A stretch of 9,891 nucleotides of DNA, from IMG/VR virus record IMGVR_UViG_2681813320_000006, positions 1-9,891 of that record. One strand, given 5' to 3'. Below are positions 1 to 9,891 of the stretch, piece by piece (within the stretch, counting starts at the first letter, position 1; each line of letters opens with the position of its first letter). The notes under the pieces were generated by a model. The model did no database searches and had not been told where the DNA came from. It saw nothing but the letters and a program-made list of their open reading frames with translations. The DNA is from a virus. Its lineage: Duplodnaviria > Heunggongvirae > Uroviricota > Caudoviricetes. A program made the translations under genes and the position numbers.

Positions 1-7
1 AAAAAAA

Positions 8-175
8 TCAAGCATTATGCAGGCTGTTTCTTTTTATCACCGGCCACAGCAATACCACAATGCCGCAGACCAGCACTCCATCCGCCAGCACCGACATGAT
101 CCTGCTGGTGAAATCCACCATCACCACCAGAAACAGCAGGAGTGCCACAGCGGCCAGACGCAGTTTTACCGTCAC
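8..175 (-). CDS. Possible small two-helix membrane protein (about 55 aa); could be holin-like, very uncertain
   Basis: Minus-strand ORF not in the supplied track. GTG at 175-173 overlaps the TerB-like stop (GTGA) with GGAG about 8 nt upstream; stop TGA at 10-8. Translation has two hydrophobic stretches (LRLAAVALLLFLVVMV, GVLVCGIVVLLWPVI). An internal ATG at 121 is an alternative start. The G/T-rich strand could produce hydrophobic codons by chance. Confidence 0.3.
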   Translation of the reverse strand: MTVKLRLAAVALLLFLVVMVDFTSRIMSVLADGVLVCGIVVLLWPVIKRNSLHNA

Positions 176-603
176 AGGTGGTTCTCCAGTCGCAGGCCAA
201 GAACACCAGCAATCTCTTCCAGAACCTTACGCTCTTCCGGCTCAATTTCACCATCTGCTTCAGCAATGGCCACCGCCACATCCAGCACATCTTCCGCTTC
301 ACGCGTATCGTGTTTCACATCTTCAATTTCACGCAACGCTGCACGACGACCAATTTTAAAATTGGTGTCAAGCTGACCTGTGATCGTGGCACTGATGGCA
401 TTAATTTCTGACGTAAATGCGGACAATGCTGGCTGGTTACGTAATACCTGTTCGATCTTCGCTTTCTCTGAAGTCTCACATTCACCATCTGCATAGGCCA
501 CCAGGTAGGCAGCATTAATAACCGCCTGTGCCAGATCGCGTTTCTCAAACTTTTTAATTTCAGTTGCTGCTCTGCGGGTTTTCTTTTTGAAGATTCCAAA
601 CAT
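172..603 (-). CDS. TerB-like (tellurite-resistance TerB family) domain protein, about 143 aa
   Basis: Track ORF 172..675 trimmed to the first ATG (603-601), which has AGGA 8 nt upstream; the track start at 675 is GTG. Acidic helical protein with AYLVAYADGE...AVAIAEADGEIEPEE pattern typical of TerB-like domains (recalled, not searched). Overlapping ORFs in other frames look non-coding. Confidence 0.65.
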   Translation of the reverse strand: MFGIFKKKTRRAATEIKKFEKRDLAQAVINAAYLVAYADGECETSEKAKIEQVLRNQPALSAFTSEINAISATITGQLDTNFKIGRRAALREIEDVKHDTREAEDVLDVAVAIAEADGEIEPEERKVLEEIAGVLGLRLENHL

Positions 604-734
604 CGTGACGTTCCTTTGGGTGGGTGAGCCAACGCCCGGGAGCGATCTGCCCACAGAGAAAGTCACACTGACCACTCCGTAAGCTCACCCCCGAAAGGCT
701 CTGTGGTTGATATGCGCCGGGCGTGGCGCAGATA

Positions 735-759
735 CAAAAAAGGCCCGCCGAAGCGAGCC
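735..759 (-). terminator. Rho-independent terminator downstream of the tRNA cluster
   Basis: On the minus strand: 7-bp stem GGCUCGC/GCGGGCC (one G-U pair) with UUCG tetraloop (759-742), followed by a 6-T run (741-736). The pairing is better on the minus-strand transcript than on the plus. Confidence 0.65.
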
Positions 760-772
760 TGGAAAATAAGTG

Positions 773-849
773 TGGCGCGTTGTAGTGGAGTCTAACCACT
801 GACCGATTGCTTAGAAGGCAATTGCTCTGTCCGACTGAGCTAACAACGC
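773..849 (-). tRNA. tRNA-Arg (anticodon UCU), phage-encoded, with an atypical T-loop
   Basis: Reverse complement folds as a 77-nt cloverleaf: acceptor GCGTTGT/ACAACGC, D-stem GCTC/GAGC, anticodon stem ATTGC/GCAAT with loop CTTCTAA, T-stem AGTGG/CCACT, discriminator G and CCA. The T-loop is TTAGACT instead of the usual TTCGAAT. Confidence 0.7.
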
Positions 850-929
850 ATGATGCTGATAATGGACCGCCACCGGGGACTCCGAATCTCGCACAGGGTG
901 ACGTTCTTTCCTGATGAGCTAGTGGCGGT

Positions 930-1005
930 TGGTGGCCCTTGCTGGATTTGAACCAGCGACCTGGCGATTATGAGTCACTCGCTCTCACCACTGAGCTAAA
1001 GGGCC
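930..1005 (-). tRNA. tRNA with CAU anticodon, most likely tRNA-Ile2 (lysidine type); tRNA-Met not excluded
   Basis: Reverse complement GGCCCTTTAGCTCAGTGGTGAGAGCGAGTGACTCATAATCGCCAGGTCGCTGGTTCAAATCCAGCAAGGGCCACCA folds as a 76-nt cloverleaf with 7-bp acceptor stem, T-loop TTCAAAT and anticodon loop CTCATAA. It closely resembles E. coli ileX/ileY as I recall them. Confidence 0.8.
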
Positions 1006-1045
1006 GATAACATAATGATAACGTTACAGAATAAATTCAGCAATA

Positions 1046-2104
1046 TCACTCTCTCTTTCTGATTAAATTCTGTACATCCCTTGCGGTCTGCTCAAAACGT
1101 CCGGTCTCCAGCTCAACGCCAATTGCACGACGCCCCAGTGCATTCGCTGCTTTGACTGTCGAACCGGACCCCATGAAGAAATCTGCAACCAGGTCTCCCG
1201 GACGACTGCTGGCGGTAATCATTTGCCGCAACATATCTGCCGGTTTTTCACAGGGATGTTTGCCCGGATAATACTGCACAGGCTTGTGCGTCCAGACATC
1301 CGTATAAGGAACGGCTGCCGATACGGAAAAATAACGCCGCAGTGATTTGTACTCTTCCAGCAGGCTGGCATACTGCCGGTTCAGCTCACTGTATGTGCTG
1401 ACCAGTTGGTGATGTGGCTTTTCCAGTTCACCCCGCTGATGTTTCTCTTCTGCCACCCGGGCAAACAGCACCTGAAGTTTTCTGTAATCATCCTCGTTCG
1501 GTAACTGCCACTGGCTGGCACTGAACCAGTGCGACACCATGTTTTTCTTTCCTGTGGCATCCACAATCTGTTTTGCCGTTATCCCCAGAGCAGCACGCGC
1601 ATCACGAAAGTAAGAAATCAGCGGGGCCATCACATGCTGTTTCAGTGCCCTGCCCTTCGCCTCATACCCGGCATCTTTCGGGCGATATGGCCCCTGGTAA
1701 TGTTCAGCAAACAGAACGCGCTCTGTGGCAGGAAAATATGCGCGCAGACGTTCTTTATTACACCCATTCCAACGTCCGGACGGCTTCGCCCAGATGATAT
1801 GGTTAAGCACGTTGAAACGTTCACGCATCATGATCTCAATATCAGATGCCAGGCGATGCCCACAGAACAGGTAAAGGCTTCCGGCAGGTTTTAACACCCG
1901 CCAGAACTGGGCCAGACAGTGGTCCAGCCACTTAAGGTAATCTTCGTCCCCTTTCCACTGATTGTCCCAACCGTTGGGTTTCACCTTGAAGTAAGGCGGA
2001 TCGGTAACAATCAGGTCAATGGAATCATCAGGCAGGGACTGAATAAAATGCAGGCAATCAGCGTTGATTAAATCAACACTGTTTATTTTTACAGTATTTT
2101 TCAT
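1046..2104 (-). CDS. DNA methyltransferase, beta class (N6-adenine or N4-cytosine), likely an orphan phage methylase
   Basis: 352-aa ORF with ATG start. N-terminal DPPY catalytic motif (LIVTDPPYF) precedes the C-terminal AdoMet-binding motif (FFMGSGST), the order diagnostic of beta-class amino-methyltransferases. No adjacent restriction endonuclease gene is visible. Confidence 0.9.
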   Translation of the reverse strand: MKNTVKINSVDLINADCLHFIQSLPDDSIDLIVTDPPYFKVKPNGWDNQWKGDEDYLKWLDHCLAQFWRVLKPAGSLYLFCGHRLASDIEIMMRERFNVLNHIIWAKPSGRWNGCNKERLRAYFPATERVLFAEHYQGPYRPKDAGYEAKGRALKQHVMAPLISYFRDARAALGITAKQIVDATGKKNMVSHWFSASQWQLPNEDDYRKLQVLFARVAEEKHQRGELEKPHHQLVSTYSELNRQYASLLEEYKSLRRYFSVSAAVPYTDVWTHKPVQYYPGKHPCEKPADMLRQMITASSRPGDLVADFFMGSGSTVKAANALGRRAIGVELETGRFEQTARDVQNLIRKRE

Positions 2105-2254
2105 GGATCAGTAAGCGTAACTCTGGTAGGCTCACTCTGCTTTTGCGCTAAAGCAGTGGGCCGTGGTTCGCTTGTGACCAGTAAGCATGAGCGAATGGCT
2201 GGCAGGTGCTACCAACACCCACCAGCCGCCCATTTTCACAGCAGGAAACCGCCA

Positions 2255-2458
2255 TTACTGGCAGCGTCTGAATTTATTCCCGTACCCGCCGTTATCCTTC
2301 GCCAGACCCGCCAGAACTAACTGAGTCAGTATTAACTGGCACTGGGCTTCGCTTACTCCGGTAGTTCTCGTCATCATGCGTGGCGTTACCCACTTGTCAG
2401 CAGGTAAGAAATGAAGGACTGCGGCGGCGGTTTCTGTCATATCTTGCTGTTTTATCAT
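2255..2458 (-). CDS. Hypothetical small protein (about 67 aa)
   Basis: Track ORF 2255..2482 trimmed to the second ATG (2458-2456), which has AGGGA about 8 nt upstream; the first ATG at 2482 has no Shine-Dalgarno. No recognisable motif. Confidence 0.45.
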   Translation of the reverse strand: MIKQQDMTETAAAVLHFLPADKWVTPRMMTRTTGVSEAQCQLILTQLVLAGLAKDNGGYGNKFRRCQ

Positions 2459-2580
2459 GTCTTTTTCCCTTCTGGTTAACATGACATACCAATAACTCTT
2501 GTCTAAAAAGCCAGCAAGATAAAAAGTCAGTATTCACGACCACCAGCGTGTTTACTGTACTGCACCAAGTTTACAGGTAC

Positions 2581-2606
2581 AAAAAACCGCTCGACGGCGG
2601 GTTTAA
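2581..2606 (-). terminator. Possible weak rho-independent terminator (candidate tR'-like late-region terminator)
   Basis: Minus strand: 4-bp all-GC stem CCGC/GCGG (2600-2597 with 2590-2587), 6-nt loop, then a 6-T run (2586-2581). The stem is short, so the call is marginal. Confidence 0.3.
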
Positions 2607-2736
2607 GCTGTGTGGCGAAGTAACCACTCTTAACAGATTAAGATAAAATTTGCGGACCGCGGTAATTTTTTTTGCTAAATTAAAGCCATATAAAAAATAA
2701 GCCCCATAAGAAATTATTAGCATACTAAGGTTTAGC

Positions 2737-3678
2737 ATGGCTACTATTGCGCAATCAAAGAAACAAAAAAAACTTAAAATTGGTTTTTACACCAGCAGTT
2801 CTGGGACTATCCGCAGCCATTCAGTTGCTAAGCAAGCAATTGAAAATCTGTATAATACTTGCGTAACCGTTACGAATAATCATTTTGATACCATCTATAG
2901 AAATAAAAAGTTAAAAATAGCTTTTATAAATAAAGATACAAAAGCTAAATATTTCTTCGGCTACATGTCATGCTCACGAGAAGAGTATCTCCTTCCTTAT
3001 ATTGGTGATGAACACTGGAATGAGCACAACATACCACTAGATGATAAAAAATACATAGTCGAAAGAACCTATTTTTTATATTATTACGATAGTGATATTT
3101 TAATATTAACTCAAAATCATCTTGGGCCGAAAGAATCGGATTTAGCTTATCTGCTTTACAGCCAGAGTGGTAATCCTGGAAATAACTTTGCATTCCAAGC
3201 CATCTGGAAAAAAGAGAGCGTCAAAGAGCTACTTGAAACAGGAAGTACTTTGAGAAGTTGTGATATTGTCCTGGCTGCTCCCAGGAACTTTGATGCAACA
3301 AATTACCAGCTAAATAGTTCATTTTCTAAGGAACTGGTAAATATGATGGTAGGGCTGGGTGGAACACGTCTCAAGTTAAATCTAAGGGGACGTGCATCAG
3401 GGAGAGTAAAAGTCAAAGGTTATTTATCAGATCTCGTTAAGGATGGTATTAAAGAACTCCTTGAAAAAATGCCGGGAATTGTAAAAAAAGCGGCAGTAAC
3501 ACAGCCCAAAAATACCGTTGAACAAAGTCTTCTTGATCAGGTACTCATTTCAGAAAAAAACATATATACCGTTAATGGTTATGGCACTGATAGTGATGTT
3601 CTGCAAGCCATGATTTCTGCTAAAATTGATAACAATGAATACCTTAAGCAATACGATATCAGCAAAAAGAAGGTATAG
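2737..3678 (+). CDS. Soluble 313-aa protein of unknown function; candidate sensor/activator of a two-gene phage-exclusion module (RexA-like by architecture)
   Basis: ATG at 2737 with TAAGG 6 nt upstream; stop TAG at 3676-3678. Strongly AT-rich (roughly one-third G+C by eye) with AAA/AAT/ATA-rich codon use, unlike the flanks. No Walker A, HNH or DPPY-type motifs seen. Same size class, gene order and N-terminal GFY motif as lambda RexA as I recall it. Confidence 0.8.
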   Translation: MATIAQSKKQKKLKIGFYTSSSGTIRSHSVAKQAIENLYNTCVTVTNNHFDTIYRNKKLKIAFINKDTKAKYFFGYMSCSREEYLLPYIGDEHWNEHNIPLDDKKYIVERTYFLYYYDSDILILTQNHLGPKESDLAYLLYSQSGNPGNNFAFQAIWKKESVKELLETGSTLRSCDIVLAAPRNFDATNYQLNSSFSKELVNMMVGLGGTRLKLNLRGRASGRVKVKGYLSDLVKDGIKELLEKMPGIVKKAAVTQPKNTVEQSLLDQVLISEKNIYTVNGYGTDSDVLQAMISAKIDNNEYLKQYDISKKKV

Positions 3679-3681
3679 GAT

Positions 3682-4125
3682 ATGTTATTGAAATACTTAA
3701 GAAACCTGATTGTAAGTGTTTTTTGCACCTTGTTCCTACTGAGGTATATCCCTCAGATGGGGCATGCTGACATACTTACAGCCTCCGGGGTTATTTCAAC
3801 TGTATCCGGTATTTTATTTGGTTTTATTTTAGCCACAATATCAATTTTTAGTGCTGCTAGCGAAAACTCAAATGGAATAATAAAAGCATTAAAAAACAAC
3901 AACATACTTCAAGTTATTATTGTAAATCTATTAACCGCAGGTGCATCTTTAATTACGGCATGCGTTATTGCTTTGATAGCAATGTTTGCCAATGAAAAGA
4001 CATTGTTACATGGAGAAAAAATAGAATTTATTTTAATTATCGAATCGTTATCTCTTCTTATCATTTCAGTAATAACTTTTGCCTTTACATGGAGAAAAGT
4101 AAACTGGATACTCCCCCACATTTAA
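3682..4125 (+). CDS. 147-aa integral membrane protein with four predicted transmembrane helices; candidate effector (RexB-like)
   Basis: ATG at 3682 with AAGAAGG 8 nt upstream, starting 4 bp after the upstream stop. Four hydrophobic segments (about residues 8-25, 30-58, 75-103, 114-138). The LFLLRYIP motif after helix 1 resembles lambda RexB LLFRHYIP as I recall it. Stop TAA at 4123-4125. Confidence 0.85.
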   Translation: MLLKYLRNLIVSVFCTLFLLRYIPQMGHADILTASGVISTVSGILFGFILATISIFSAASENSNGIIKALKNNNILQVIIVNLLTAGASLITACVIALIAMFANEKTLLHGEKIEFILIIESLSLLIISVITFAFTWRKVNWILPHI

Positions 4126-4148
4126 AAAGGGCAGAAATGCCCTTTTTT
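4124..4148. terminator. Bidirectional rho-independent terminator shared by the convergent cassette and the Q gene
   Basis: AAAAA-GGGCA-GAAA-TGCCC-TTTTTT: 5-bp stem (4129-4133 with 4138-4142), GAAA tetraloop, A-run on one side and T-run on the other, so it reads as hairpin plus U-tract on either strand. It sits between the cassette stop (4125) and the Q stop (4149). Confidence 0.6.
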
Positions 4149-4511
4149 CTACTCCATTTCAAGTTTAACATCCAGCATTGAAAGGCATCCATCAATAAAC
4201 CCTTCAGCCATCTGTATCTCTATACGTATCAATTTCTCATCTTTTTTGCGAGCTCTTGCAAGCTTTCTTTTCGAGATGCCATACAGGTAATGGGCCACAA
4301 TCAAAGAATGCTCGTACGGTTTTCGCTTTTTAAGAAGAGCAAGACAACCTTCAATAATTAATGCATCACTATCTGAACAAGCCTGACGTGTTTTGCTTGT
4401 ATAGGGAAGAAGCCCTTTAAACCCAGCAGCTATAGGAGAATAGTCTACTCCTGAACTATCACTCGCCGCCCATGCTCCCCAACGATCCAGAACCATTTGA
4501 ATATCACGCAT
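4149..4511 (-). CDS. Late-gene antitermination protein Q (short Q family, QuuD-like), about 120 aa
   Basis: Track ORF 4149..4526 trimmed to ATG at 4511-4509 (the track start is TTG), with GGAG about 8 nt upstream. N-terminus MRDIQMVLDRWGAWAA matches the E. coli DLP12 QuuD N-terminus as I recall it. Position after the replication module fits a Q gene. Confidence 0.75.
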   Translation of the reverse strand: MRDIQMVLDRWGAWAASDSSGVDYSPIAAGFKGLLPYTSKTRQACSDSDALIIEGCLALLKKRKPYEHSLIVAHYLYGISKRKLARARKKDEKLIRIEIQMAEGFIDGCLSMLDVKLEME

Positions 4512-4528
4512 CAACTTTCTCCACAAAA

Positions 4529-5524
4529 TCAGGCCAGCACGCCAATTGCCAGCGCGCGATCGATAAAACGAAATATCAGCTCCAGCTGGGAACCATACTT
4601 CTCTTCAAATGCCACGGTATCCGCATGCAGTTCGTCATGGTGTTTTCTGCACAAAGGCAACACAAAAAGGTCATGCGCTTTTGTACCCATACCACCCTGA
4701 CCATGACCAATCAGGTGATGAGGATCGTCGGCTGGCTTACCACAACATGCACACGGCTGCGTCTTAACCCAGCGCGTGTACTTTTCATTAACCCAGCGAC
4801 GACGTTTTGGGCGTAACATAAAAGACTCCGGCGACTCCGGATCCACTTTCAGCGCCAGCACCTTTTTCGCTTTATCCTGGATGATGCTGGTGGCAGGAAC
4901 CGAAGGCACAAGGTCACTTTCCCGGGTGACAGACGGCACAACAGGTTTCGGTAATCTCAGCGCCTTACGGGCTGCGCTTTCAGGTAAGGCATCCGCCAGG
5001 TCATTACGAATCAGCCACCAGCACAGTTCCGGCATTGTCACGGCATGGTTATCATCAAAACCGAGATCCCGACGGACTACAGACAACACCCAGCGGGCAC
5101 AGTTATCCGTTGCCATTGATTCCAGCCGTTCCGTGAACTGATCGCGCAGCTGGTTATCGCAGTGCCAGCACAGACGGATTGCGCCCGGAGCGTGTCGCAT
5201 TGTGGTCATGTTCTCGCTGTGCCAGTCGGAATGAGGCCACTGGCAGCCTTTTTCACGAAGTAACCAGCTTTCAAGACATTCCACTCCACCAGCACGACGA
5301 ATAACTGCCTCATTGCGGAACACGGCCCGAACGGCAGGATCATCCGCCAGCGGTTGTGATGCTGCCGGAACGGCACCGCTGGCGAAAGATGAATAACGTT
5401 CCGGCTCAGGCTCCAGCAGGACACGCCCCTGCATAAACAGGGGCATCAGCTCTGAACCGGGCCTGAACAATACAATCCCCATTCGCGGGGCAATTTCAGG
5501 AGTCAACAATGCTCTCACGGTCAC
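4529..5524 (-). CDS. DUF968-like prophage protein (YdfU-like) with a C-terminal Cys/His zinc-binding, HNH-like motif
   Basis: 331-aa ORF. C-terminus has CACCGKP...HHLIGHGQGGMGTKAHD...PLCRKHHDELH, a Cys/His cluster of the kind seen in DUF968/YdfU-type proteins. The track start at 5524 is GTG; a GTG at 5518 with GAGG upstream or an ATG at 5485 are alternatives, so the start is uncertain. Confidence 0.7.
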   Translation of the reverse strand: MTVRALLTPEIAPRMGIVLFRPGSELMPLFMQGRVLLEPEPERYSSFASGAVPAASQPLADDPAVRAVFRNEAVIRRAGGVECLESWLLREKGCQWPHSDWHSENMTTMRHAPGAIRLCWHCDNQLRDQFTERLESMATDNCARWVLSVVRRDLGFDDNHAVTMPELCWWLIRNDLADALPESAARKALRLPKPVVPSVTRESDLVPSVPATSIIQDKAKKVLALKVDPESPESFMLRPKRRRWVNEKYTRWVKTQPCACCGKPADDPHHLIGHGQGGMGTKAHDLFVLPLCRKHHDELHADTVAFEEKYGSQLELIFRFIDRALAIGVLA

Positions 5525-5569
5525 CTCAGCGAACGATATTGCATGAACACAGGAGAAAAAATTCAGCCA

Positions 5570-5827
5570 TCACGCAGTAAACTCCTTCACCAGAGTTTCA
5601 AACTGGCTTACCTTGCCTTCCAGTTCCGCCACGCAATCCACCAGCTCATCCACCGCCTTTTGTGTGCGGTGTTTTGCCTGCAGCAGATCACGAAGCGCCG
5701 GAGTAAGCTGCTTGCGGAGCGTATCCTTTGCCACGCTCATTTTTTCCATCTGTTCAGCACAACGAAGCATCTCCTGCGCCTGGCGACGAAGTTGTTCCGG
5801 TGAAACAGTGGCTGTTCTGTTATTCAA
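5570..5827 (-). CDS. Hypothetical small coiled-coil protein (85 aa)
   Basis: TTG start at 5827 overlaps the helicase stop (TTGA) with GGAG about 8 nt upstream, suggesting translational coupling. Charged helical sequence (EQLRRQAQEMLRCAEQMEKM...), no identifiable domain. Internal ATGs are alternative starts. Confidence 0.45.
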   Translation of the reverse strand: MNNRTATVSPEQLRRQAQEMLRCAEQMEKMSVAKDTLRKQLTPALRDLLQAKHRTQKAVDELVDCVAELEGKVSQFETLVKEFTA

Positions 5828-7224
5828 AATAAACGCTCCGCTTTACTGCCCGACATGCGGTTATTGCTGTATCTGCGCGGATTGCCCGGCGTCATGGGTG
5901 TGGAAAGCCCCCGGGCACTTTCCTGGTCCACAGGCAGAAAATGCCCGTTATGAAAACGTCGGTAAATGGTCCCGAGTGTGCCATTACGCTGTTTCGTGAT
6001 GTTGATTTCTGCTATGCCTCTCGCCTGTGTATCCGGGTTATACACCTCATCCCTGTAAAGCATCAGAATGATGTCGGCATCAGCCTCTATTTCCCCGGAG
6101 TTTTTCAGGTCTGAGTTCATGGGACGTTTATTGGGTCTGGATTCCACGCCGCGGGAGAGCTGGCTCAGAGCAATCAGCGGGAAACCGCCGGATTTTGCCA
6201 GGCTTTTAAGTCCCTTTGAGATTTCCCCCACCGCAAGGTCGTGACGCCCCGTGCTGCGGGTTTTAATCAGACCGAGGTAATCGACCACCACCAGCGCCGT
6301 TTCCGGATGCTTCATCCGGTGGTACCTCGTGGTTGCACATATCTCATCAATGGTCAGATTTGCCTGGTCCACCATCCAGATATTACGCCCCGTCATTCGT
6401 CCCACACCCTGTGAGAAACGTGCCCAGTCTTCGTCTTCAAAACGGGCAACAGACTTAAGACGGGATACCGGCATTCCCCCTGCTGCAGACACCATACGTT
6501 CACCAATCTGGATGTTCGCCATCTCCATGGTGAACAGAAGCACGCCATGCCCCTGCTCAGTCACCTTGTCGATGATGTCCAGCGCCAGTTCGGTTTTCCC
6601 CATCGAAGGACGAGCCGCAATGAATACCAGGTCGCCTGGCTCCATCCCCCCTGTTTTTGCGTCCAGTTCATCAATACCGGTCATCAGCGCCCTGGATTTC
6701 TCCAGTCCCTGATTCCGGCATTCAACACGGCCCACCACTTCCGGAAGGACATCATCAATGTGAACCGGCTGAATGACGCCCTTTCCGGTCGACAGTGAGG
6801 CCATCATGTTCTGCGCATCCTTCAGGGCATCTTCTGCCGCTTCGCAGGTATGTGCATCACGTAAATTCTGTAATGCTTCGGTCAGTGTTTTTTCTGCATC
6901 GCGCAGTACGGCATTTCGCCGCAGCGCTGCAACATAGTGCTCCAGTGAAGACTTCACCCAGGTTTTGCGCCCGGTGTCAGTAATCACCGGGGCAAGTTCC
7001 GGCATCTCATTGCACAGCAGCACGGGGTCAATGACGCCGGATACGCGGGCCTGTCTGCAAATCCCCGCGTAAATATCCCGGTACTGACGCACGAAAAATA
7101 CATCCGCCGGAAGCGTGGCCAGAATATCCATCACTTCCGGATCAGCCCCACGCAGAAAAAACGCGCCAATCACCGCACCTTCCAGGTCATCGTTACGCCA
7201 TGCCGGGTTGTTCTGGCTGGTCAT
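5824..7224 (-). CDS. Replicative DNA helicase, DnaB family (phage-encoded)
   Basis: 466-aa ORF with ATG at 7224 overlapping the upstream stop (ATGA). Walker A (ARPSMGKT), Walker B-like VVVDYLGL and DnaB-like downstream motifs (SGGFPLIALSQLSR). Size and N-terminal domain fit DnaB-type helicases such as P22 gp12. Confidence 0.92.
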   Translation of the reverse strand: MTSQNNPAWRNDDLEGAVIGAFFLRGADPEVMDILATLPADVFFVRQYRDIYAGICRQARVSGVIDPVLLCNEMPELAPVITDTGRKTWVKSSLEHYVAALRRNAVLRDAEKTLTEALQNLRDAHTCEAAEDALKDAQNMMASLSTGKGVIQPVHIDDVLPEVVGRVECRNQGLEKSRALMTGIDELDAKTGGMEPGDLVFIAARPSMGKTELALDIIDKVTEQGHGVLLFTMEMANIQIGERMVSAAGGMPVSRLKSVARFEDEDWARFSQGVGRMTGRNIWMVDQANLTIDEICATTRYHRMKHPETALVVVDYLGLIKTRSTGRHDLAVGEISKGLKSLAKSGGFPLIALSQLSRGVESRPNKRPMNSDLKNSGEIEADADIILMLYRDEVYNPDTQARGIAEINITKQRNGTLGTIYRRFHNGHFLPVDQESARGLSTPMTPGNPRRYSNNRMSGSKAERLF

Positions 7225-8099
7225 GCGGCAACACCTCCGATACGAGAACGGTAGCTGGGCCAGTTAAACGACAACCAGTTGCGCCCGCCATCGGTGATCC
7301 TGTCGGCAATCCGGGGACTGATGAACGCCCACAATTCTTCCGGTGAAAGGTTGCTGATCAAGATAGTTGGCAAAATACCCTCATACCGGGCATTGATAAT
7401 TTCCTGCAAAATGGCCATTTCAGCCGCACTGCCAAACTGAACGCCGACTTCGTCGATGATCAGCAAATCCAGTGACGCATAATGCTCAATGACGTCATCC
7501 GCTGTTTTTTCACTGTCATTCCGCCAGCAGTTTTTCACAGCACGGGTAAGGCGCATCACGTCGGTGATCTCCACACTGGCCAGATAGTTACGGATGATGT
7601 GTTTTGCCATTGATACCGCCAGATGATTTTTCCCGGTACCGCAACTGCCGGTCATAACAAGACTGGTACCGTTCTCCAGCATATCTGGCCAGTTCTCCAC
7701 ATAGCGGCGACAGGCCGCAAGATTTCTGGCTGCGTCAGGATTAACCTCCAGATAATTATCAAACTCGCAGTCCCGAAAACGCAGAGCAATTCCGGCGTTA
7801 TCAGTCAGTTCTTCCGCCTTGAGGGACGACAGCTCCATGGTCAAATCGTTGGCCTCAGCTATCAAGCAGTCAGGGCAGCATGAAATTTTTTCTCTGTCCT
7901 CGCCATTACGATCGCTCCACACCAGAATATGTGTGTGGTATTCGCCATGTTTTTCGCAACACCCGCGCCCTTCACGCATCCAGCAGGAACGATAAGGCCA
8001 TGGCTTTTCGCCCTTCTGAGCAAATGCAATCTCTGCCCGTAACTCATCCATCCGCGCCTGTAGTCTTGTTTGTTGTTCACGCAGGTTAAACGTCATCAT
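7221..8099 (-). CDS. DnaC/IstB-like AAA+ helicase loader with an N-terminal Cys-rich, probably zinc-binding, extension
   Basis: Walker A MTGSCGTGKNHLA and Walker B LLIIDEVG. Track start 8108 is GTG; the ATG at 8099 has GAGGTGA 5 nt upstream and is preferred. N-terminal region has CC...H.H...CCPDC cysteine/histidine clusters. Confidence 0.88.
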   Translation of the reverse strand: MMTFNLREQQTRLQARMDELRAEIAFAQKGEKPWPYRSCWMREGRGCCEKHGEYHTHILVWSDRNGEDREKISCCPDCLIAEANDLTMELSSLKAEELTDNAGIALRFRDCEFDNYLEVNPDAARNLAACRRYVENWPDMLENGTSLVMTGSCGTGKNHLAVSMAKHIIRNYLASVEITDVMRLTRAVKNCWRNDSEKTADDVIEHYASLDLLIIDEVGVQFGSAAEMAILQEIINARYEGILPTILISNLSPEELWAFISPRIADRITDGGRNWLSFNWPSYRSRIGGVAA

Positions 8100-8109
8100 C
8101 TCTGTCACC

Positions 8110-9018
8110 TCAGAATGTCAATTTGTCACTGGATTTACCGAATTTGTCAGACATGGCTCCCAGGCCAGCCAGGACATCGACCTGTCGCTGTCGCCCACCT
8201 CCGGGAGCAGATGGCTGTTGCCATGATTCGTCAAAGTGTCGATCGGGGCCAAAGAACGTCGACGCCTGCTTCACGAACTGAGTGCCGGTATTTCCTGAGA
8301 CACGCACCCAGGCGGCATAGCGTTTCACACCGTTGAGCATGGTTTCGGGTGTCACACCTTCCCTGATTCGGGCTTTCCAGGCTTTGAAGGCTGCTGACTT
8401 GGAATTACCACCAGCACGTTTGGGATATTCCTGCCAGGCCTGTTCAAATTCCGGTGAATATTCCTGTCGGGCAGAACGTGCTGGTGCAGACGCGTCAGCG
8501 GATGCGCCAATAGTGTTTTTACTCTCTGTAGTATTCTCTGAAGTAATCTCTGTTGTATTCTCTGTAAGATCGAAATTGGTTTTCCCTTCTCCGCGGCGAG
8601 GGGTTTCCCGTGTCCGCGGTGAAGGCTTTCCCTCCTCCGCGAAATTGGGTTTTACAGTTTCCCGAAAACGGGTTTCCCCATTTCGGGAAAACTGATTGTT
8701 TTCATTGATAATTTCATTAAGGCGCTCACAATCTATACGGTAGAACATTTTGTGCTCAAGACGCTTGTTGGTTTCAACCAAAATGCCTCTGGACACAAGA
8801 TGCTTACGCGCTACAGCCTGTTGTTCAAATGTAAGTCCTGTTTCGTGTTGTATCTCTTCACGCGTTTTATGTACGCCTTCCGCTGCATGTGCTTTATCCT
8901 GCCAGTAAAAAATCTGACCAAAGAAAATAACAGCGTGCGGACTTCCCATGTATTTAACGAGCCCAGGGTAATAAGCAACCGGATGTCCAAAATCGAGCAG
9001 AAGATCAGACGGACGCAT
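8110..9018 (-). CDS. Replication initiator (lambda O-like, origin-binding) with a repeat-encoded linker
   Basis: Track ORF 8110..9024 trimmed to ATG 9018 (GGAGGTG 5 nt upstream; the track start is GTG). The central protein region (TENTTEITSENTTESKNT, PRTRETPRRGEGKT) is encoded by DNA direct repeats, as in lambda O where the ori iterons lie inside the gene. It sits immediately upstream of the helicase-loader and helicase genes. Confidence 0.75.
   Translation of the reverse strand: MRPSDLLLDFGHPVAYYPGLVKYMGSPHAVIFFGQIFYWQDKAHAAEGVHKTREEIQHETGLTFEQQAVARKHLVSRGILVETNKRLEHKMFYRIDCERLNEIINENNQFSRNGETRFRETVKPNFAEEGKPSPRTRETPRRGEGKTNFDLTENTTEITSENTTESKNTIGASADASAPARSARQEYSPEFEQAWQEYPKRAGGNSKSAAFKAWKARIREGVTPETMLNGVKRYAAWVRVSGNTGTQFVKQASTFFGPDRHFDESWQQPSAPGGGRQRQVDVLAGLGAMSDKFGKSSDKLTF
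8523..8695. repeat. Iteron-like direct repeats inside the O-like gene (candidate replication origin) followed by an AT-rich stretch
   Basis: Four 12-bp tandem units containing TCTCTG (8523-8570). Five TTTCCC-containing units at 8581, 8603, 8627, 8658, 8673 (about 22-24 bp apart) with internal dyads such as CCCGAAAACGGG and TTTCGGGAAA. AT-rich segment at about 8690-8725. Confidence 0.6.
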
Positions 9019-9238
9019 AGCCACCTCCCAGGCGTTTAAACATTTTTCCGGACTGAAACGCCACCAGCGGATAACTCAGGGTATGAGTACGCCCCTGCAC
9101 CTGGCAGACAACCTTCTGACTTTCTGCATTGACCAGGCAAACCCGCAGAACGTGGCCGTTGCTGGTGGTGAACCACTGCCCCACACGGGGGCAACGGTTG
9201 TATCGGTGATACAGGGAATTAACGATGTAGCGGATCAT
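9005..9238 (-). CDS. Hypothetical small protein (77 aa)
   Basis: ATG at 9238 with GGAGGTG 5 nt upstream, overlapping the upstream stop (ATGA). Its 3' end overlaps the O-like start by 14 nt. No recognisable domain. Confidence 0.55.
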   Translation of the reverse strand: MIRYIVNSLYHRYNRCPRVGQWFTTSNGHVLRVCLVNAESQKVVCQVQGRTHTLSYPLVAFQSGKMFKRLGGGYASV

Positions 9239-9429
9239 GGACGCACCTCCGCCGTAGTTACGTATTTAACTGGGCTACCTTTCATTGAGATGGTTTCACA
9301 CATCCCTGCCGCTTTCAGTTCCGCCGTTTTTCTGGATTTATAGCGACGATGCCAGACAGATACATCCGTGCGAACTGATACATCGTTTCTGTATTCCGTA
9401 GTGGAGATGATGATTTCGTAACTAATCAT
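9235..9429 (-). CDS. Hypothetical small protein (64 aa)
   Basis: ATG at 9429 with AAGGAGGTG 5 nt upstream, overlapping the upstream stop (ATGA). Part of a translationally coupled chain of minus-strand genes. Confidence 0.5.
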   Translation of the reverse strand: MISYEIIISTTEYRNDVSVRTDVSVWHRRYKSRKTAELKAAGMCETISMKGSPVKYVTTAEVRP

Positions 9430-9731
9430 GGGTGCACCTCCTTGTCAGAACCATTCAGCCTGTAATCAACAAGTGCAGCACCAAAAACTGCATCACCTAC
9501 ACGGTCGTACAGTTTGCCAGCCAGCGGAGATTCAACGGCCTTAAGCATTGGATAAAGCTGGCTTGTCCAGATTTGGTGGATTTCTCGCAAATGCAGGTAT
9601 ACGCCTCTGGCGTTTTGTGCGACAGATGGCATATCAGCCGCACCAACTCCTGATAAGCACCTCTCCATCTGGTTAAAGGCATTGATGTATGCTTCTTTGA
9701 ACCGGGCAGCACGTTTACCCGTGAAACCCAT
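9426..9731 (-). CDS. C-terminal portion of a Rha-like (Phage_pRha-type) regulatory protein; N-terminal part appears interrupted or truncated
   Basis: The reading frame stays open upstream of ATG 9731 to a TAA at 9851-9849 and encodes ...SEYTDASGRKLPCYQITRDGFAFLAMGFTGKRAARFKEAYINAFNQME, which resembles the conserved core of Rha-family proteins as I recall it. No ATG/GTG/TTG start lies between that stop and 9731, and 9731 has no Shine-Dalgarno. Confidence 0.45.
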   Translation of the reverse strand: MGFTGKRAARFKEAYINAFNQMERCLSGVGAADMPSVAQNARGVYLHLREIHQIWTSQLYPMLKAVESPLAGKLYDRVGDAVFGAALVDYRLNGSDKEVHP

Positions 9732-9891
9732 AGCAAGAAACGCAAAACCGTCGCGGGTGATTTGGTAACAAGGGAGTTTGCGGCCTGATGCGTCGGTGTA
9801 TTCACTTAACAGTAAGCGTGCAGCAAGAACCGTATTGACGGGGATGTGTTATTCAGTCGGCAGTGCTACGCGCCAGGGGAGCAGTTCGCCG

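Follow-up and report, generated by a model that had tools for sequence, protein, structure and literature searches.

The stretch of phage DNA analysed here (IMG/VR virus record IMGVR_UViG_2681813320_000006, positions 1 to 9,891; 9,891 nt in all, referred to below as the window) carries at positions 773-1005, on its minus strand, a small tRNA island, which is identified with a probability of about 0.8 as the rare-codon tRNA island ileZ-argN-argO of a lambdoid prophage of the Shiga toxin (Stx) phage type, in which the middle gene argN is dead and argO is weakened by the replacement of C56 with A (argO-A56). The names of the three genes are based on alignment to the annotated ileZ, argN and argO of phages Stx2a_1447 and phiP27, together with the gene context. 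The island comprises the following features:

930-1005, minus strand: ileZ, tRNA-Ile2 (CAU); ARAGORN, Rfam 68.3 bits
850-929 (core 863-928), minus strand: argN pseudogene and its flanks; alignment to argN, no tRNA call
773-849, minus strand: argO, tRNA-Arg (UCU); ARAGORN, Rfam 66.7 bits
793, minus strand: C56A in argO; comparison of alleles

ARAGORN calls the two flanking genes as tRNA-Met/Ile2(cat) and tRNA-Arg(tct), and the Rfam tRNA covariance model RF00005 recovers both with E-values of about 1e-13 at the scores listed, the gathering score of the model being 29. Both genes end in an encoded CCA. The first-pass annotation, which was made from the letters of the window alone, had placed tRNA-Ile(CAU) and tRNA-Arg(UCU) at these same coordinates but gave no strand; both lie on the minus strand. 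It had also been reminded of the ileZ-argN-argO arrangement of some lambdoid phages with a decayed middle tRNA, and this is borne out by the alignment to Stx2a_1447 and phiP27 and by the matching gene context. In Stx2a_1447 (AP012536), a 933W-like phage, ileZ, argN and argO are annotated between a DNA methylase and stx2AB, with gene order, strand and position as in the window. The first gene of the island, ileZ, is identical at 75 of 76 positions in the two phages, and argO at 72 of 77, its acceptor, D and anticodon arms being the same save for position 16; a similar hairpin follows argO in both. The two phages differ in that argN is intact in Stx2a_1447 (called by ARAGORN as tRNA-Arg(tcg), 55.9 bits) but deleted in the window, that the T arm of argO is canonical there (C50:G64, C56, A59), and that argO is followed there by stxAB, whereas TerB and DUF3927 genes stand in this place in the window. 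A megablast search of phage records returned 290 matching records, nearly all of them from Stx-converting phages.

The spacer between the two tRNA genes is exactly 80 nt long (850-929) and reads on the minus strand A-CCGCCAC-TAGCTCA...GTGGCGG-T-CCA. Its acceptor-like helix has a perfect 7 bp, or 8 bp with the flanking A:T pair, and its tRNA-like core (863-928) measures 66 nt including CCA, versus 77 nt in intact argN. The features first remarked in this spacer, namely a length of 80 bp, a perfect 7-bp acceptor-like pairing, a TAGCTCA motif and a size too short for a cloverleaf, are thus all present. As aligned with the ileZ/argN/argO region of 933W-like phages, the spacer corresponds to argN, and relative to the closest intact allele 28 of the first 32 nucleotides and 16 of the last 18 are identical. 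A 12-nt deletion has cost the remnant its anticodon loop and the 3' side of the anticodon stem, whose 5' side carries two changes. The D stem shows GAGC>GAAC, and in the T arm two stem pairs are mismatched and the loop has gained 1 nt. In addition, the intergenic stretch between ileZ and argN, which is 7-9 nt long in relatives, is reduced to 1 nt in the window (6-8 nt lost). In runs of ARAGORN and the Rfam tRNA model in which both flanking genes are called, no third tRNA is found in the spacer, by Rfam even under permissive filters at E<=10, and the spacer folds no better than shuffled sequence (z = -0.89). As judged from these lesions, argN, formerly a tRNA-Arg(UCG) gene, is evidently a dead deletion pseudogene in the window.

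The same remnant occurs outside the window. In the Stx2c phages (e.g. Stx2c_PV98-693, LC727876), which are 96.9% identical over window 725-1200, the 80-nt spacing is the same, the argN remnant is identical, and the stretch between ileZ and argN is shortened alike; these phages differ from the window in ileZ C29, in the canonical T arm of argO, in the intergenic stretch between argN and argO, and in the stx2c module downstream of argO. A 42-mer spanning the deletion junction is found at 411 places in 392 of 5,426 complete genomes of Escherichia coli, where nothing is annotated, with an identity of at least 99% at the best place in each of the 392 genomes. An intact argN is the sole defining feature of the island that is lacking from the window, so that this copy is grouped with the two-tRNA derivatives represented by phiP27 and the Stx2c phages.

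The uniformity of the junction 42-mer could also be taken to mean that the remnant is kept as an RNA-processing element, whose acceptor minihelix would be cut by RNase P, so that ileZ, ending only 1 nt upstream, would be released at its 3' end and parted from argO. The retention of the perfect 7-8-bp acceptor helix together with CCA fits this explanation, as does the 7:66 pair, which is C:G in the remnant versus U:A in intact alleles, a two-sided change that keeps the pairing. However, RNase P requires a T arm as well as the acceptor stem, and the T arm of the remnant is broken by two stem mismatches and an enlarged loop, the remnant fold is not better than its shuffles, and other decayed argN types lose the acceptor helix altogether, e.g. 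...GGCAAUCCA. Moreover, the low variation fits a recent spread equally well, and the double change at 7:66 may predate the deletion. A role in processing is thus considered highly improbable, and the remnant is treated here as the product of decay.

A survey of the island in other phages points in the same direction. In IMG/VR, a pattern fixed on the 3' half of argO recovered 120 further island copies, and nucleotide diversity was computed over the 111 loci with a recognisable ileZ. It is 0.003 for ileZ, 0.012 for the first 27 nt of argO, 0.124 for argN and 0.185 for the intergenic spacer between argN and argO, the values for ileZ and argO being somewhat favoured, since every copy shares the anchored 3' half of argO and five loci lacking ileZ were filtered out. 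ARAGORN calls no tRNA in 12 of 53 distinct middle segments, and the uncalled segments belong to at least three unrelated decay types, which are the deletion seen in the window, a replaced anticodon arm as in phiP27, and a mutated T loop together with the acceptor end. Even some of the alleles counted as intact contain stem mismatches, and intact argN scores 56-58 bits in Rfam versus about 70 bits for the neighbouring tRNAs. Given a diversity near that of intergenic DNA and at least three independent decays, argN is the dispensable member of the island.

In the Stx2e phage phiP27 (NC_003356), ileZ and argO are the sole tRNA genes annotated; they are 101 nt apart, with a methylase gene upstream. 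This phage resembles the window in having two called tRNAs around an uncalled segment of tRNA size that derives from argN, but its decay is independent, as the 101-nt segment keeps the acceptor, D and T arms of argN while its anticodon arm has been replaced by one with an 11-nt loop; the T arm of its argO is canonical. The phiP27-type middle element (locus L002, 1772-1872) is also present in about 13 IMG/VR loci (segments sp6, sp9, sp15, sp32, sp42 and sp50), its different anticodon arm consisting of an ACGAC/GUUGU stem and the 11-nt loop. Neither ARAGORN nor Rfam calls a tRNA in this element, which may have decayed along a route of its own or be an unusual tRNA-like element. One further IMG/VR locus (segment sp27) has an otherwise intact argN whose anticodon is UCU in place of UCG owing to a single change, G36U; this would be an anticodon switch duplicating the specificity of argO.

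The gene ileZ has its CAU anticodon at window 970-972 and a canonical T loop, UUCAAAU. Rfam flags position 27:43 as non-standard (A27·C43), in agreement with the mismatch at the top of the anticodon stem that the first-pass annotation had reported. The mismatch is real, but it is no sign of decay: A27·C43 is common to nearly all surveyed copies of ileZ, including that of the Stx2a phage, and no other part of the island is as conserved as ileZ, so that the mismatch is a trait of the family. The window haplotype carries one change of its own, C29U (window 977), which turns C29:G41 into the wobble pair U29·G41; the Rfam score falls with it from 72.5 to 68.3 bits. Beside the CAU anticodon, ileZ contains both C4:G69 and C5:G68, which are the major identity pairs of E. 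coli TilS (PMC11947777). The host gene ileX of E. coli K-12, which encodes tRNA-Ile2 (CAU) with the same decoding role, is identical to ileZ at 67 of 76 positions and shares C4:G69 and C5:G68, but has G27·U43 in place of A27·C43. A gene identical to ileZ of the window is labelled tRNA-Ile in E. coli UTME-9 by the Prokaryotic Genome Annotation Pipeline (PGAP). On these features, ileZ is most likely fully functional.

The anticodon UCU of argO lies at window 813-815. Relative to annotated copies, argO is identical at 72-73 of 77 positions, the differences being confined to position 16 and the T arm. Its D loop is AGUCGGACA, which includes A20, and its anticodon includes C35; A20 and C35 are identity elements for E. 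coli arginyl-tRNA synthetase (ArgRS). The host gene argU of E. coli K-12, encoding tRNA-Arg (UCU), shares the D stem, A20, the anticodon loop and the decoding role with argO, but differs in its acceptor, anticodon and T stems and has the canonical T loop UUCGAAU.

Three T-arm alleles of argO (positions 49-65) can be distinguished. The canonical T arm is ACUGG-UUCGAAU-CCAGU. The intermediate T arm, AGUGG-UUCGACU-CCACU, contains the compensatory change C50:G64 to G50:C64 plus A59C and keeps C56. The window T arm, AGUGG-UUAGACU-CCACU, contains G50:C64 (window 799 and 785), C59 (790) and A56 (793; T on the plus strand), C56A being its sole difference from the intermediate T arm. The A at the normally invariant C56, within the T loop TTAGACT, had been noticed at first reading and is real. 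As counted in complete E. coli genomes with 41-mers seedable by one allele only, the canonical T arm occurs at 4,098 places in 2,145 genomes, the intermediate T arm (G50:C64, C59, C56) at 778 places in 531 genomes, and the intermediate T arm with C56A, as in the window, at 77 places in 77 genomes; PGAP labels every listed A56 copy as tRNA-Arg. The A56 allele is also present in 16 IMG/VR contigs, five of which carry the full window haplotype (ileZ U29, argN remnant, argO A56) and eleven an intact argN.

The sequence downstream of all intermediate and A56 copies with a known flank is one and the same, barring occasional single-base differences; in the IMG/VR copies, the first 70-90 nt after argO are shared. 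Where the flank is intact in annotated genomes (UTME-9, NE 1092-2), as in the window, this downstream sequence leads to TerB and DUF3927 genes. Upstream of intermediate and A56 argO, the gene next to the island may encode either a methylase or a helix-turn-helix protein, and both Q-type and DUF1133-type antiterminators are found. Because the downstream sequence is constant while the upstream modules vary and argN is intact or deleted, C56A appears to have arisen once on the intermediate allele and then to have entered several prophage backbones by recombination with breakpoints inside the island.

In argO-A56, the T-loop residues are U54, U55, A56, G57 and A58, and G18 and G19 are unchanged, so that the G19-C56 pair cannot form. 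Residue C56 is a conserved T-loop residue which pairs with G19 to close the elbow of the tRNA (PMC7912444). Disruption of G19-C56 abolishes aminoacylation in some systems, which is restored by the swapped pair (PMC3602588), and C56A reduces the cleavage of plant organellar pre-tRNA by protein-only RNase P to 0-30% (PMC5039416). The product of argO-A56 is probably still made but would be poorer in folding, processing and ribosome transit. The gene is accordingly judged to be neither a new functional design nor a completely dead gene but a weakened tRNA, i.e. a tolerated hypomorph that would be drifting under redundancy, the redundancy being provided by host argU and by canonical argO in other prophages of the same genomes. 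Strain E2863, for instance, has one A56 copy of argO and several canonical copies. The earlier reservation that the functionality of the tRNAs was not assured is fair for argO-A56, but with 77 complete genomes carrying it, the allele is no lesion peculiar to the window.

Several points weigh against reading the island as one with a weakened argO. The A56 allele scores merely about 2 bits below its C56 counterparts in Rfam (66.7 vs 67.3-71.7), every gene finder used accepts it, no additional lesions are found in 17 sampled A56 copies, and the allele is spread over unrelated serotypes and prophage backbones, all of which is compatible with a fully functional tRNA too. The covariance-model score was also tried as a gauge of the damage to argO and was dropped, as a loss of about 2 bits cannot discriminate. 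The mutant data on C56 were obtained with RNase P of plant organelles and with synthetases that do not include E. coli ArgRS. As to expression, no convincing sigma-70 promoter adjoins the tRNAs, and the route of transcription, whether a late transcript dependent on the antiterminator Q or an own promoter, is deduced from gene order.

If argO-A56 is indeed fully functional, it may be a positively selected variant, either a suppressor of misfolding or a tRNA whose elbow evades an elbow-recognising nuclease. This is regarded as unlikely. No nuclease is implicated by any of the data, and the loss of G19-C56 is generally harmful. The first form of the explanation can be stated more precisely: argO-A56 would be a functional bacterial elongator tRNA found in nature that lacks the near-universal G19-C56 pair, selected for breaking an 8-bp misfold which arose when recombination of prophage alleles joined U16 with C59, and C56A would thus be an intragenic suppressor, giving up a tertiary pair to gain the correct secondary structure. 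In the U16+C59 background, 8 bp can form between the D loop AGUCGGAC and the T loop GUUCGACU, and C56A breaks this helix. As modelled with ViennaRNA, the U16+C59+C56 allele has a minimum free energy of -27.2 kcal/mol versus -22.0 kcal/mol for its cloverleaf, with a cloverleaf probability of 5e-5, while the window allele has -22.3 versus -22.0 kcal/mol and a cloverleaf probability of 0.046, like canonical alleles. In addition, A56 is found together with U16, the exact 57-nt U16+A56 haplotype being present in 76 of the 77 A56 genomes and in all 17 sampled A56 copies, and A56 persists in those 77 genomes on several backbones with no further lesions. However, the U16+C59+C56 allele that is supposed to misfold occurs in 137 complete genomes, more than the 76-77 with A56, and no selection against it is seen. 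The linkage of A56 with U16 is expected from a single mutational origin, and in the nearest-neighbour model the cloverleaf is not the structure of minimum free energy even for canonical alleles, so that the energies are weak evidence. The energies are thus suggestive but the population data give no support, and suppression of a misfold by C56A, which in this specific form is thought quite improbable, was set aside as a low-probability rival. A tolerated, weakened argO remains the preferred reading.

The genes around the island, all of them on the minus strand apart from one module, agree with a lambdoid prophage. They are, from upstream to downstream of the island:

8110-9024, minus strand: O-like replication gene; Pfam/PHROG family matches
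7221-8108, minus strand: DnaC-like replication gene; Pfam/PHROG family matches
5824-7224, minus strand: DnaB replication gene; Pfam/PHROG family matches
4529-5524, minus strand: DUF968 gene; Pfam/PHROG family matches
4149-4526, minus strand: Q-like late antiterminator; PHROG phrog_79, E = 4e-45; about 3.1 kb upstream of the tRNAs
2737-4125, plus strand: two-gene module of a DUF6731 protein (313 aa, phrog_7651) and a 147-aa phrog_8552 protein; Pfam, PHROG
between the Q-like gene and the methylase, minus strand: small phrog_331 gene; PHROG
1046-2104, minus strand: DNA methylase (N6_N4_Mtase); Pfam; directly upstream of the tRNAs, a place it also has in 933W-like phages, phiP27 and Stx2c phages
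741-760, minus strand: GC-rich, terminator-like hairpin with a T run after it, 12 nt beyond argO; the Stx phage relatives have a similar hairpin here
172-675 (longest open reading frame), minus strand: TerB-family protein; Pfam; PGAP homologue of 143 aa
8-175, minus strand: DUF3927; Pfam

The island is located in the late region, where the Q-like gene is followed by the methylase, the tRNAs and then the moron (accessory-gene) slot. In the window this slot, which carries stxAB in Stx phages, is filled by the TerB-family and DUF3927 genes (8-675), and sequence homology to Stx phages ends at about window 725. A layout like that of the window is also found in E. coli UTME-9, NE 1092-2 and Xuzhou21. 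A prophage without Q had been suspected, as UTME-9 has a DUF1133 gene where the window has the plus-strand module, and was rejected, since the open reading frame at 4149-4526 on the minus strand is Q-like (phrog_79). The plus-strand module (2737-4125) sits between the Q-like antiterminator and the late genes, and would be read through in antisense by a late transcript that begins after Q. In E. coli NE 1092-2 there is a single hypothetical gene on the opposite strand just after Q, which is similar in size to the 147-aa gene. PADLOC gave no significant match for the plus-strand module or for the TerB/DUF3927 cargo, and a defence function was dropped.

From this gene order, the island would be transcribed with or within the late transcript, which RNase P, RNase E and 3' exonucleases would then process, in keeping with general knowledge of tRNA maturation, and the hairpin terminator at 741-760 would close the island transcript. 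The product of ileZ would be tRNA-Ile2, whose C34 is converted to lysidine by host TilS so that it reads AUA, and that of argO would be a tRNA-Arg(UCU) reading AGA and AGG. Both tRNAs may add to host tRNAs in short supply (ileX/Y and argU) where prophage genes use these codons heavily. The open reading frames of the window use ATA, AGA and AGG at 10.8, 11.1 and 5.6 per 1000 codons, respectively, two to four times the E. coli average, and this elevated use fits the usual rationale for ileZ and argO.

The whole island may alternatively be a non-functional relic of a defective prophage, with ileZ, argN and argO all dead or unexpressed. There are derived changes in all three genes of the haplotype (ileZ C29U, the argN deletion and argO C56A), an IS3-family insertion sequence (IS) interrupts the adjacent methylase in the closest complete genome and an IS66-family element follows the island in an O111:H8 genome, and the opposite-strand module lies between Q and the late genes of the window. 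However, ileZ C29U keeps a G·U pair at 68.3 bits, ileZ is strongly constrained throughout the family, as its diversity of 0.003 indicates, every checkable identity element is kept in both tRNAs, and the window has open frames with strong family matches for Q, the methylase, the replication genes, TerB and DUF3927. It is therefore very unlikely that the island is a relic as a whole, and the reading in which argN is dead, argO weakened and ileZ functional is retained. The IS3-family element mentioned above splits the methylase next to the island in UTME-9 (locus L004, 6784-9155), and the IS66-family element stands directly after argO (locus L145, 2744-5041); these insertions point to ongoing erosion of these prophages.

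Two small RNAs, STnc100 and AgvB (anti-GcvB), are identified by Rfam in related prophages (L050, 966-1222 and L001, 3354-3496). Neither has a match in the window at the Rfam gathering level. A sub-threshold STnc100-like match spans window 730-834 and so takes in the 3' part of argO; the terminator hairpin accounts for most of the alignment.

The closest complete relative of the window is E. coli UTME-9, which differs at 1 of 412 nt across the island and its flanks, a base that lies 3' of argO; over the same 412 nt, five IMG/VR contigs match the window exactly. In this stretch of UTME-9, PGAP, which uses tRNAscan-SE, labels a tRNA-Ile and a tRNA-Arg and nothing in the spacer, so that neither outcome named in the first-pass annotation as refuting its reading, the absence of both flanking calls or a normal third tRNA in the spacer, arose in this annotation. 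Over the whole window, the best of the fetched loci are 98.4% identical over 4.9 kb and 95.3% identical over 7.8 kb. As none is identical throughout, the window is one more mosaic of known modules. In a scan of species-representative genomes, the island was found in Escherichia only (E. coli, E. albertii and Escherichia sp.) and in two metagenome-assembled genomes of doubtful binning. The latter are contigs binned as 'uncultured Collinsella sp.' and 'Proteobacteria bacterium' (L139 and L143), which are most likely mis-binned contigs of Escherichia prophages.

The island is ordinary and already known in kind, with unchanged copies in many sequenced E. coli genomes; this statement rests on the GenBank annotations of relatives plus general knowledge, and full-text literature searches on ileZ, argN and argO returned nothing relevant. 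Such islands have long been known as accessories of Stx-type prophages, where they are believed to aid the expression of genes with many AUA, AGA and AGG codons, and the identification of one in the window has little import beyond annotation. Three modest points may be added. An unannotated argN remnant is present in about 7% of complete E. coli genomes. The natural C56A allele, in its 77 complete genomes, could provide a ready-made test of how far an E. coli tRNA depends on the G19-C56 pair. Finally, the conserved tRNA genes mark boundaries of module exchange between prophages, the T-arm allele of argO moving together with the cargo downstream of it, and ileZ and argN with the genes upstream.

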